A stretch of DNA of 64,000 nt. It comes from Longimicrobiales bacterium. GTDB lineage: Bacteria; Gemmatimonadota; Gemmatimonadetes; Longimicrobiales; Gaopeijiaceae. Under the pieces are notes generated by a model. It had not been told where the DNA came from. It made no database searches and was given only the letters and a program-made list of their open reading frames with translations. The stretch lies in NCBI GenBank assembly GCA_965116905.1, contig OZ220732.1, forward strand, positions 2,496,001 through 2,560,000, given 5' to 3'. Below are positions 36,913-41,513 of this stretch, piece by piece (positions within the stretch are counted from its first letter, which is position 1; each line of letters begins with the position of its first letter). Both the position numbers and the translations under genes were made by a program.

Positions 36913-38412
36913 CTAATCGTCGTCCGGCGCCTCATAATCATAGAGCCCCGTCGGCCCTCGCGACCCGCGTGGCAACGGCGCTATGTCCTCCGGGAGGATG
37001 GGATCCGGTATCTCTATGGCGGGATTCGACAATCCAAGGGCAGGCAGCAGGAAGACAATGTCGGTGTCAGTCGGCGGCACCGACGATGATCCCCTCGCTC
37101 CGAGTTGCTTCGCGGTGGATCCAATCGATGTGGAAGTCCCCGGAACAAGCAAGTCGACATAGCGCCCGAAGTGCGGCCGCGGGTGCTGCCCGAATCGGCG
37201 GCGGAAACCGTCAAGTTGCGATCCACCCCCGACCAGAATCACACGAACATCTTTCCAGCGGTCGGTGTTCTTCTCCTTCTTGTAGGCGTCACCGAAGCTC
37301 GCGCTGTATGCGTCGAAACTGCGTGCAGCCACCTCGTCCGCGGCCTGGTCCAAGTCACTTGGATCGAGGGGCCGGCACCCCTCGCCCATGCGCACTTGTC
37401 GGTCAGCATGTAGCTCGGGCTTTGCCTCCCGAACCACCGGAAACAGAAGAGCCCTGTCGGTGTCCGACACCGCCAAGATGTCGAGTAGTCTATCGTCGAT
37501 ATCGTCGCACCCGACAAGAGCAGTCTTGGCTGAAAAGAAGAAGACGCAGTCTTCTTCCTCGGAACGGCGCAATTTGAACCACCCCAGGTCCGTCGTTCCC
37601 GCGCCGATGTCCACGATCGCGGTGTATCTTCGACTGTTGGGTACAGTGGACGCTAAAGCCGCCTCGCCCCCCTTAACGACTGCCGACGATTCGGGGACGA
37701 GCTCCCACCGCTTGTGCTCCCGGTCTGGCGAGCCGGTGCTTTCCCTGTTGAGGATTTCAATCCAGCGGTGCCAGAGAGCAGGATAGTCGTCTAGTTGCAG
37801 GTCGTCCGTCTCTGCGAAGTCCACGGCGGCGTCGAGAGCCGTCTGGTATCCGCGCTGGATTGGACCACCGTCCAGCTGCGACACCGGGATATCGAGATTG
37901 TATCGGAACTCGGAATTCGCGCCGTACTCTTCCATCGCCAACTCGCGGACTTGACCGAGGACCGCACTGAGATACACAGCGACAAGAAAGTGAGGATGTG
38001 TGCCGAGCGCCTGGGGAACCGGAGGCACTTCGGATGCGGCCAGGTGGCGCGGGTTCCCGTTGGTGGTAATCAGTGTTCGCTTGAGCGAGCGAAACACGGT
38101 GTCCGTGTCATGCTTCTCTGCCTCCACACCGAAGAGAAAACGAGAGTCGGTGAGGGCGATGGTAGACGGGAAGCTGAACCGTGAGAAGCCGGGCCGATCG
38201 GTGCCGAAATCAACGGCCCACGCCGGACGGCCCTTATCCAGCGAGCGGACGACCACTTTCGTCCCCGAGGTCCCGAAGTCGAGACCGATGAAGACGAACG
38301 CCACCGGCGCTACGGTCGCAGGAGGAGTCGCTTCCCCCTCGATCGAAGCGTGGGCAGTGCCACGCGGACGCCCGATGCGGAAGAGGCGGAGTAAGGAGCG
38401 CAGCCAGCTCAT
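36913..38412 (-). CDS. Actin/Hsp70-fold (ASKHA) ATPase, nucleotide-binding domain only
   Basis: Phosphate-1 IGLDFGTSGTKV, connect VPESSAVV, phosphate-2 VDIGAGTTDL, adenosine ILVGGGSQL; no room for a DnaK substrate domain. Confidence 0.8.
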   Translation of the reverse strand: MSWLRSLLRLFRIGRPRGTAHASIEGEATPPATVAPVAFVFIGLDFGTSGTKVVVRSLDKGRPAWAVDFGTDRPGFSRFSFPSTIALTDSRFLFGVEAEKHDTDTVFRSLKRTLITTNGNPRHLAASEVPPVPQALGTHPHFLVAVYLSAVLGQVRELAMEEYGANSEFRYNLDIPVSQLDGGPIQRGYQTALDAAVDFAETDDLQLDDYPALWHRWIEILNRESTGSPDREHKRWELVPESSAVVKGGEAALASTVPNSRRYTAIVDIGAGTTDLGWFKLRRSEEEDCVFFFSAKTALVGCDDIDDRLLDILAVSDTDRALLFPVVREAKPELHADRQVRMGEGCRPLDPSDLDQAADEVAARSFDAYSASFGDAYKKEKNTDRWKDVRVILVGGGSQLDGFRRRFGQHPRPHFGRYVDLLVPGTSTSIGSTAKQLGARGSSSVPPTDTDIVFLLPALGLSNPAIEIPDPILPEDIAPLPRGSRGPTGLYDYEAPDDD

Positions 38413-41400: not shown

Positions 41401-41513
41401 GCACCGTTGCGCAGCTTAGGCGCGCGTATGACCTCTCCCACCTTGGAGCGGTCGCTCCGTAGCTGAACGCGATCGTCCGTTTCGAAGATGGGTCGTGGGA
41501 TTAGCGAGTCCAT
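38409..41513 (-). CDS. SNF2-family ATPase/helicase (RapA/DrmD-like)
   Basis: [58 protein letters not shown]; C-terminal coiled coil. Confidence 0.93.
   Translation of the reverse strand: [1034 protein letters not shown]

Follow-up and report, generated by a model that had tools for sequence, protein, structure and literature searches.

A SNF2 ATPase gene and an ASKHA ATPase gene lie side by side, and overlap, on the reverse strand of a 64,000-nucleotide stretch of DNA from a Longimicrobiales bacterium (contig OZ220732.1, positions 2,496,001 to 2,560,000; the whole stretch is termed the window). The products are a RapA-like motor protein of 1034 amino acids (aa) and an Hsp70-like ATPase of 499 aa that belongs to an unnamed family. 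An undescribed defence system is likely, because the two genes remain neighbours and co-evolve in several bacterial phyla and in an archaeon, often among anti-phage genes. A defence role for the pair is considered quite probable. Somewhat less firmly, the pair is on balance probably a module that works by itself against phages or plasmids: the motor would act on DNA-protein complexes of the invader and the Hsp70-like ATPase would position and switch the motor.

An earlier note, made from the letters of this DNA, had described a SNF2 ATPase of about 1030 aa with intact motifs, overlapping a 499 aa protein at an ATGA, and had proposed the two as an anti-phage module. The reading frames, the motifs and the overlap, as read on the coding strand, are as described (Table 1). 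The ATGA overlap together with the GGAGG sequence makes translational coupling of the SNF2 and ASKHA genes likely. The N-terminal sequence of the ASKHA protein is MSWLRSLLRLFRIGR.

The pairing is found widely. A scan of metagenomes with the ASKHA motif alone gave 120 loci, 80 of them with flanks. A same-strand SNF2 gene of the paired type adjoins the ASKHA gene in 69 of these 80 loci (64 upstream, 5 downstream). The remainder are nine loci with less than 900 base pairs (bp) upstream of the motif, two of which (L054, L076) look unpaired, and two low-scoring unpaired loci (L061, L062). Among 301 genomes of the class, 48 match the ASKHA profile at E 0.001. Seven of the matches are strong, that of the genome studied here included, and all are from one family; the other 41 are weak and partial. 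SNF2 is directly upstream of ASKHA in 6/6 strong relatives, with neighbourhoods that otherwise differ, and a SNF2 score of at least 1170 bits is found in exactly the seven genomes that carry the ASKHA gene. In 401 genomes around G303 all six SNF2 matches of at least 979 bits have ASKHA as the next gene, and in 301 genomes around G304 the ASKHA gene is present in three and paired in all three. The pair is thus present in about 1–2% of the genomes sampled (7/301, 3/301 and 6/401, each including the seed genome). Among the matches listed in a scan of genome contigs, 15 loci consist of 6 of the ASKHA family, 1 PDC-M61B and 8 low-scoring ones.

Named carriers include Lentisphaerota, Pseudomonadota, Thermodesulfobacteriota, Binatota, Cyanobacteriota and a Methanosarcinaceae archaeon. 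Cultured, non-pathogenic strains with intact pairs are Sphingobium fuliginis (WP_140043503/504), Aminobacter aminovorans (WP_067969856/WP_157097306) and Cyanobacterium sp. HL-69 (AUC62497/498). Occurrence is sporadic: within the genus, 3 of 26 genomes have the pair. Some copies are on plasmids, and the neighbours include integrases and transposases. A third conserved gene was not found in 94 loci, as no third family recurs in more than 7 of the 94. No SNF2-ASKHA fusion was detected at E 1e-15 among proteins of 1464–4180 aa, which is a weak negative. Viral contigs scanned for the ASKHA motif gave no matches. A tblastn search with the ASKHA protein found none in phages or plasmids, and this blank reflects low sensitivity, because profile searches later found plasmid copies.

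Trees of the two proteins agree. For 54 pairs (90% de-duplicated, SNF2 of at least 900 aa and ASKHA of at least 380 aa) the Spearman correlation is 0.82, a value not attained in any of 999 permutations. Twenty of the 23 starred splits of the ASKHA tree are shared with the SNF2 tree and no starred splits are in conflict. Both genes are under purifying selection, with nonsynonymous to synonymous substitution ratios of 0.09–0.11 (SNF2) and 0.21–0.27 (ASKHA).

Several loci depart from the usual arrangement. In five (L024, L042, L083, L100, L150) ASKHA precedes SNF2, and the ASKHA proteins measure 744–843 aa; the N-terminus of these carries a WD40 match in L042 and, weakly, in L024, and a coiled-coil-like match in L150. 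SNF2 and ASKHA are separated in L026 and L087 by genes for an SRA-HNH nuclease and PDC-S07. L011 (349–12986) displays a PDC-M61B-like ASKHA gene, SNF2, a family ASKHA gene, a gene of no assigned type, and ZacB- and ZacC-like genes, so that two ASKHA genes flank one motor. L069 (3700–5550) has a 616 aa protein with a Pfam HSP70 match (E 2.7e-23), 359 bp upstream of a SNF2 of the same clade; this protein is an outlier on the ASKHA tree.

The surroundings of the pair are rich in defence genes. The two nearest genes on each side were counted in 90 de-duplicated loci (183 proteins) and compared with PADLOC at E 1e-8. PADLOC matches are present in 88/183 neighbours, or in 84/179 when the four of L014 (a PDC-M61 locus) are omitted, versus 7/114 control genes, taken from seven other ASKHA loci and the flanks of the window. 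The neighbouring systems vary from locus to locus and include Gabija, Zorya, type I and type II restriction-modification, BREX, DISARM, Druantia, Hma, Azaca, AbiU and PDC candidates. In L015 (2039–14943) the pair interrupts a BREX operon, with brxC on one side and pglX on the other, and in L047 it follows pglZ-brxL. A subclade (L074, L094, L095, L098) is located behind drmB and a NERD-type helicase, which are on the opposite strand in L063; drmA and a cytosine methylase are nearby in part of this subclade, a setting like DISARM class 2.

The SNF2 protein has motif I (DEVGLGKT, positions 132–139), motif II (DEAH, positions 237–240) and motif VI (QRIGRVDR, positions 615–622), and the key residues of these are invariant or nearly so across 55 homologs. 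Its structure model (predicted local distance difference test score, pLDDT, 84.5) displays a RapA-like architecture: a small N-terminal beta domain, two RecA lobes, a spacer, and a C-terminal sheet with a long helical hairpin. RapA is the closest solved structure both by profile (266 bits) and by fold (model residues 63–1027, Z 18.5, root mean square deviation (rmsd) 11.8, 747 residues aligned; VIA). No nuclease domain was detected by Pfam, PADLOC, NCBIfam or fold searches, although matches to the motor core dominated the last. The best PADLOC match is full length, to a model labelled DrmD (PDLC02623, 587 bits). With the NCBIfam DrmD model the score is 373 bits, and six other paired SNF2 proteins score 343–431 bits, below the cut-off of 610; a true DrmD beside drmMI, used as a positive control, scores 1201 bits. 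The NCBIfam RapA score (256 bits) is also below its cut-off (576).

The nearest relatives of the motor appear to be SNF2 proteins encoded next to sacsin/Tiamat-like genes. In the 401 genomes around G303 there are four SNF2 matches of 648–680 bits, all with a sacsin/Tiamat-like Hsp90-fold gene next, and the same holds for one match of 636 bits in the class sample. Two weaker matches (about 330 bits) have neither an ASKHA nor a sacsin/Tiamat-like gene next. Nine of ten plasmid SNF2 matches were retrieved: five adjoin ASKHA, three adjoin a sacsin-domain gene with TmtA matches, and in the ninth (L154) the neighbouring gene is cut off. Eight loci (L160–L164, L147, L148, L151), from bacteria and an archaeal plasmid, show SNF2 with a sacsin/Tiamat-like Hsp90-fold gene next after it, either overlapping or adjacent. 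An N-terminal, Swt1-like HEPN domain is present in 3/3 long Tiamat-paired SNF2 proteins scanned (L161, L162, L163).

A quick IQ-TREE analysis (40 rows including one DrmD row, LG+G4 with no mixture model; ZorD, ZacC, the L054 SNF2 and near-duplicates omitted) places 26 ASKHA-paired motors in one clade (SH-aLRT 97). This clade is joined with eight Tiamat-paired motors (SH-aLRT 97), and DrmD, HmaA and RapA are outside. A topology that unites the ASKHA-paired clade and DrmD and leaves the Tiamat-paired SNF2 proteins outside is rejected (p-AU 0.012, one DrmD row). In a FastTree analysis of 72 rows with distant outgroups, the basal branching was unresolved and a single ASKHA-paired clade was not recovered; ZacC and one Tiamat-paired row were put within the ASKHA-paired motors, with long-branch warnings.

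The 499 aa protein displays an amphipathic helix, a disordered linker (positions ~11–34), a nucleotide-binding domain (positions ~37–470) and a proline-rich/acidic tail. The earlier note had read all four ASKHA nucleotide motifs in this protein and no DnaK substrate domain, and both observations are upheld. The motifs are kept in 131 homologs (alignment A4), where D45, K52, E241 and D268 are each conserved 131/131. In the AlphaFold2 model (pLDDT 82) the fold match covers residues 37–475, which is the nucleotide-binding part, and no substrate-binding domain is seen. The predicted two-lobed fold and the four nucleotide motifs place the protein in the ASKHA superfamily.

Alignment to E. coli DnaK by HHalign (probability 97.9, E 3.4e-13) pairs D45, T48, K111, P176, E241, D268, T273 and K331 with DnaK D8, T11, K70, P143, E171, D194, T199 and K270. 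These DnaK residues are catalytic, and as judged from the alignment the catalytic residues of the Hsp70 nucleotide-binding domain are kept. K52, invariant in the family, is at the position of DnaK C15; actin has a lysine at the matching position.

The earlier note had suggested an actin-like partner, possibly membrane-associated or polymerising. The coupling and the defence context of a two-ATPase module are upheld, and so, in the model, is the ASKHA fold, but the partner is nearer to Hsp70. The model gives Z 28.0 with BiP (rmsd 3.5, 338 residues aligned; VIA), 27.9 with Hsp110, 26.4 with BeeR, 25.4 with MreB, 20.5 with actin, and 15–19 with actin-related proteins (ARPs), and the Foldseek matches listed are of the Hsp70 family throughout. 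By its predicted fold the partner is therefore nearer to the Hsp70 nucleotide-binding domain than to MreB or actin, with BeeR and MreB not far behind. Identity as an MreB was rejected, as the MamK model (15 bits, cut-off 400) and the BeeR model (12 bits, cut-off 530) score below cut-off and there is no Pfam MreB_Mbl match; homology to ARPs was rejected on the Z values. Because the Hsp70 fold and the DnaK residues are kept and the substrate-binding domain is missing, the protein is in all likelihood an active ATPase of the Hsp70 type and not a DnaK-like chaperone.

The protein has no match to any Pfam family, HSP70 included, and a sequence search of the PDB gave none. Besides MamK and BeeR, there is a weak match to PDC-M61B (E 7.5e-5, 19.6 bits). 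A profile-free search of 1.84 billion representatives yielded 560 matches at E ≤0.001 and 208 at E ≤1e-10. Thus the unnamed ASKHA ATPase family comprises up to 560 clusters at 50% identity, 208 of them at E 1e-10 or better. The nearest ESM Atlas clusters are labelled “hypothetical protein” (0.98) and “putative molecular chaperone” (0.97); an SrfB cluster is at 0.91, with only 149 shared features.

The amphipathic N-terminus noted earlier is a trait of the family. Helix 2–13 is present in the AlphaFold2 model at low pLDDT, and the hydrophobic moment of the N-terminal segment (0.94) exceeds that of every internal 18-mer sampled in the same protein. In alignment A2, 105 homologs start with Met and include the first motif, and 89 of these have an extension of at least 25 residues. 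A basic, aromatic N-terminal 18-mer with a moment of at least 0.6 is found in 41/89 versus 84 of 2548 internal 18-mers (3.3%). Other members show WD40 (L042, weakly L024), TPR or coiled-coil matches at this end. The N-terminus may therefore serve for targeting or sensing, as a module that varies between members and is attached by a flexible linker.

The G+C content of the pair (60.0%) is lower than that of the genome (67.7%), as the earlier note had surmised from the line at 39601–39660 (30/60); equally low values are found in 0.4% of 914 windows of 4.6 kb each. The note had also placed the pair among restriction nucleases. McrBC, three HNH proteins and an EcoRII-N fragment are indeed present in what is a defence island of low G+C, and a DS-11 gene that the note overlooked is 39 bp upstream of the SNF2 gene on the same strand (Table 1). 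DS-11 is also directly upstream of the pair in L003 and L030. Relatives of the 117 aa and 334 aa open reading frames are found upstream of the pair in L043 and L099, and of the larger one also in L060 and L005. The sigma70-like site precedes the order HNH, DS-11, SNF2, ASKHA and is a consensus match only; three such sites were found in comparison with 2.0 expected from shuffling. No tRNA is present in the window. DnaJ, GrpE, MreC and MreD, absent according to the earlier note, gave no Pfam matches among the 33 window open reading frames scanned.

Table 1. Positions in the window of the gene pair, its motifs and the surrounding features.
Feature	Position	Strand	Remarks
SNF2 ATPase gene	38409..41513	(-)	1034 aa counted from ATG at 41513; open reading frame 38409-41519
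Walker B / motif II DEAH of SNF2	40794..40805	(-)	
ATGA stop/start overlap	38409..38412	coding strand (-)	GGAGG a few bases before ATG
ASKHA ATPase gene	36913..38412	(-)	499 aa, unnamed family
Basic, aromatic amphipathic helix, residues 1-13	38374..38412	(-)	predicted membrane or protein docking element
Phosphate-1 motif GLDFGTS, residues 43-49	38266..38286	(-)	D45 = DnaK D8
K111	38080..38082	(-)	aligns with DnaK K70; 130/131 homologs
Connect motif PE, residues 240-241	37690..37695	(-)	E241 = DnaK E171; 131/131
Phosphate-2 motif DIGAGTTD, residues 268-275	37588..37611	(-)	D268 = DnaK D194, T273 = DnaK T199
Adenosine motif GGGS, residues 395-398	37219..37230	(-)	
DS-11 CBS-domain anti-phage protein	41553..42719	(-)	NCBIfam 335 bits, cut-off 260; context, outside the module
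Phosphorothioated-DNA-binding HNH restriction endonuclease	42689..43618	(-)	NCBIfam 252 bits, cut-off 180; context
Sigma70-like site TTGACA-17-TACAAT	43689..43717	(-)	11/12
Two further HNH proteins and EcoRII-N fragment	35815-36762, 34199-35440, 35109-35633	(+), (-), (-)	other side of the pair
McrB-McrC pair	29865-30614 and 30791-34092	(-) and (+)	second partial McrC-like open reading frame, opposite strand, 129 bits
AbiLi-like AAA_21 ATPase	24293-25525	(+)	187 bits; near left edge of island; partner gene not identified
117 aa helix-turn-helix-like and 334 aa open reading frames	43827-45213	(+)	the 334 aa one without family match
Small potassium-channel-like open reading frame	45491-46174	(+)	right edge of island

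In the proposed mechanism the SNF2 and ASKHA proteins would work as a complex. The RapA-like motor would travel on the DNA of the invader, stripping off or blocking the proteins bound there. The Hsp70-like ATPase may be a nucleotide-switched regulator of the motor and a predicted membrane tether: its amphipathic helix, or the WD40, TPR or coiled-coil segment of some members, would position or trigger it, and ATP turnover in the Hsp70-like domain would gate the motor. The output would be remodelling of the DNA-protein complexes of the invader, and other nucleases in the cell would do the cutting. That all of these steps are correct is possible but doubtful. A complex prediction with SNF2 residues 1–108 and 645–1034 and the whole ASKHA protein scored 0.01, where 0.32 is the mark to reach; with the RecA lobes omitted and no control complexes predicted, this score weighs neither for nor against a complex.

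A number of points weigh against a self-contained defence module. No effector domain was found in the SNF2 or the ASKHA protein, and the proposed output is for this reason a guess. The control loci of the neighbour count (DnaK/MreB/FtsA-type loci and window flanks) are core DNA and not accessory DNA, some PADLOC matches are generic (UvrD, WYL, RecQ-like), 95/179 neighbours have no PADLOC match, and L021, L004 and L032 show no defence match. In two of the six family relatives SNF2 is intact but the adjoining ASKHA gene is broken: it is split by an inserted open reading frame in L003 (8621–11388) and is in pieces in L006 (9057–10560). A clear N-terminal helix, by the criteria used, is missing in about half of the members, with 27/89 passing a shuffle test (p 0.05), and since the survey was controlled with internal peptides, a general N-terminal bias stays in the figures. 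The pair trees were compared with each other and not with a host tree as a control, and co-inheritance of neighbouring genes in a mobile block could alone give their agreement. It is because the flanks change while the pair stays that a functional link is proposed.

Three other explanations were considered. The pair may be an accessory that only boosts neighbouring restriction-type systems (restriction-modification, BREX, DISARM), e.g. by removing DNA-bound proteins or loading nucleases, and would be inert alone. Consistent with this unlikely alternative, the pair has no nuclease domain, follows the HNH nuclease and DS-11 genes on the same strand in the window, and is found within a BREX operon, after pglZ-brxL, and behind drmB with the NERD-type helicase in the loci cited above. 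However, the neighbouring systems vary and none is common to all loci, the present genome has no DUF1998 gene, the nearest neighbours in L021 and L004 are without defence matches, a cyanobacterial plasmid copy lies amid toxin-antitoxin and plasmid genes, and L035 and L097 contain a true DrmD in addition to the pair. An alternative judged improbable makes the Hsp70-like protein the effector: the SNF2 protein would sense phage DNA and trigger its partner, which would then form polymers on the inner membrane or damage it, or the pair would drain ATP, resulting in abortive infection. The conserved amphipathic helix, the invariant K52 and the structural scores of the filament-forming BeeR and of MreB, just below Hsp70, are in keeping with such a role, but the best structural matches are Hsp70/Hsp110 domains. 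Because about half of the members are without a clear helix, and some display WD40, TPR or coiled-coil segments instead, a targeting role is favoured over a killing role.

Slightly more improbable still, the pair may have no part in defence and may be a mobile stress or transcription-maintenance unit, a RapA-like recycler of RNA polymerase with a dedicated Hsp70-like cofactor, which accumulates at hot spots of integration. In favour, almost the full length of the motor matches RapA, integrases and transposases are found near the pair, and hot spots gather any mobile gene. Such a unit is at odds with the sub-cut-off NCBIfam RapA score, the sporadic distribution of the pair, the grouping of the motor with Tiamat-associated SNF2 proteins and not with RapA, and defence neighbours that are approximately eightfold commoner than in the control. 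Should the pair be protective, as the self-contained module predicts, it would be a two-gene system, based on an ATPase family without a name, that PADLOC 2.0, NCBIfam 20 and Pfam miss. It would offer a minimal two-protein setting for the role of RapA-like SNF2 motors (DrmD, BrxH, HmaA) in immunity, and would show an Hsp70-fold ATPase without a substrate domain acting as the regulator of a motor.

Among the named systems of PADLOC 2.0, NCBIfam 20 and Pfam none matches the pair, in line with the earlier note, and a full-text literature search, which did not extend to subscription journals, figures and supplementary candidate lists, found no paper on a SNF2-ASKHA pair. The note had also stated that the partner genes of DISARM and Zorya I are absent, and this is borne out. 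DrmD of class 1 DISARM is likewise a RapA-like SNF2 protein of about 1030 aa in defence loci, and its relatives are ArmA of ARMADA II, BrxHI/HII, HmaA and DpdE. ArmA is described as DrmD-like in a source whose accessible part does not mention “Hsp70” (10.1101/2025.09.22.677730). Identity with class 1 DISARM was rejected on the NCBIfam DrmD score and on the separate branching of the motor. No PADLOC or NCBIfam match to a drmA/B/C/MI operon was found among 21 window open reading frames; DUF1998 (drmB) is absent from the 97% complete genome, where the DrmMI model gives partial matches far away. Type I Zorya was rejected, as the ZorD model scores 26 bits (cut-off 1500) and no zorABC or other Zor match was found among the same 21 open reading frames. 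A BREX, Hma, Dpd or ARMADA helicase was rejected because the cognate methylase and core genes are absent from the window and a constant third gene is absent from the 94 loci; ARMADA, for which the libraries hold no model, was judged by gene content from the accessible part of its description (10.1101/2025.09.22.677730).

PDC-M61B is a distant Hsp70-like relative, and its partner is PDC-M61A, not SNF2. For a true member (L014) the scores are 553 bits with PDC-M61B and 174 with the ASKHA family profile, whereas SNF2-adjacent ASKHA members score 45 bits or less on PDC-M61B, except for the extra upstream gene in L011 (117.5). The score of 19.6 bits and the lack of PDC-M61A in the window led to rejection of this system. 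In L014 (4742–13664) PDC-M61A and PDC-M61B are inserted between hmaB and hmaC. CnuD (CnuCD) of Type III CoCoNuT is an Hsp70-like ATPase in a predicted defence system, and according to the accessible part of its description it has nucleotide-binding and substrate-binding domains, HEAT repeats, degenerate nucleotide motifs and McrBC partners (PMC11090510). The ASKHA protein differs from CnuD, as so described, by its intact motifs, its SNF2 partner and the lack of a substrate-binding domain; CnuD was rejected, as neither this domain nor HEAT repeats are in the model and the McrBC of the window is not conserved beside the pair.

With the Hsp70/DnaK nucleotide-binding domain the ASKHA protein shares the predicted fold and the eight residues aligned above. 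It differs by K52, the amphipathic N-terminus, and the absence of a substrate-binding domain, of DnaJ/GrpE neighbours and of a Pfam HSP70 match. RapA (HepA) is the closest solved structure to the motor over nearly its full length; the motor differs by its sub-cut-off NCBIfam score, its sporadic distribution and its constant ATPase partner. INO80 and SWI/SNF likewise combine a SNF2 motor with an ASKHA-fold companion, and ARPs bind eukaryotic SNF2 remodellers; complexes of this kind are among the structural matches of the partner. The resemblance is an analogy at most, as the partner is further from ARPs and actin than from Hsp70.

The closest comparison is with Tiamat-like loci. Tiamat has been shown to have antiphage activity and is reported to be a DNase; the accessible part of that source lists Swi/Snf helicases among the neighbours of Tiamat and does not mention “Hsp70” (10.64898/2026.09.30.754977). 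The Swi/Snf-type SNF2 proteins of these loci are the nearest relatives of the motor and the layout is the same, SNF2 followed by a chaperone-fold ATPase. The partner in Tiamat-like loci is of the Hsp90/GHL fold and about 900–1100 aa, whereas here it is of the Hsp70 fold and no nuclease is seen. Identity as a Tiamat-like system with SNF2 was rejected, since the partner has an ASKHA fold with no SACS or TmtA match. A bolder suggestion, rather unlikely as it stands, is that the pair represents a widespread, nuclease-free form of immunity with a membrane-tethered SNF2 motor switched by a dedicated Hsp70-fold ATPase, with the Tiamat-like loci as a sister arm that uses an Hsp90 fold, and that it is a convergent counterpart of the eukaryotic modules of SNF2 and actin-fold proteins.

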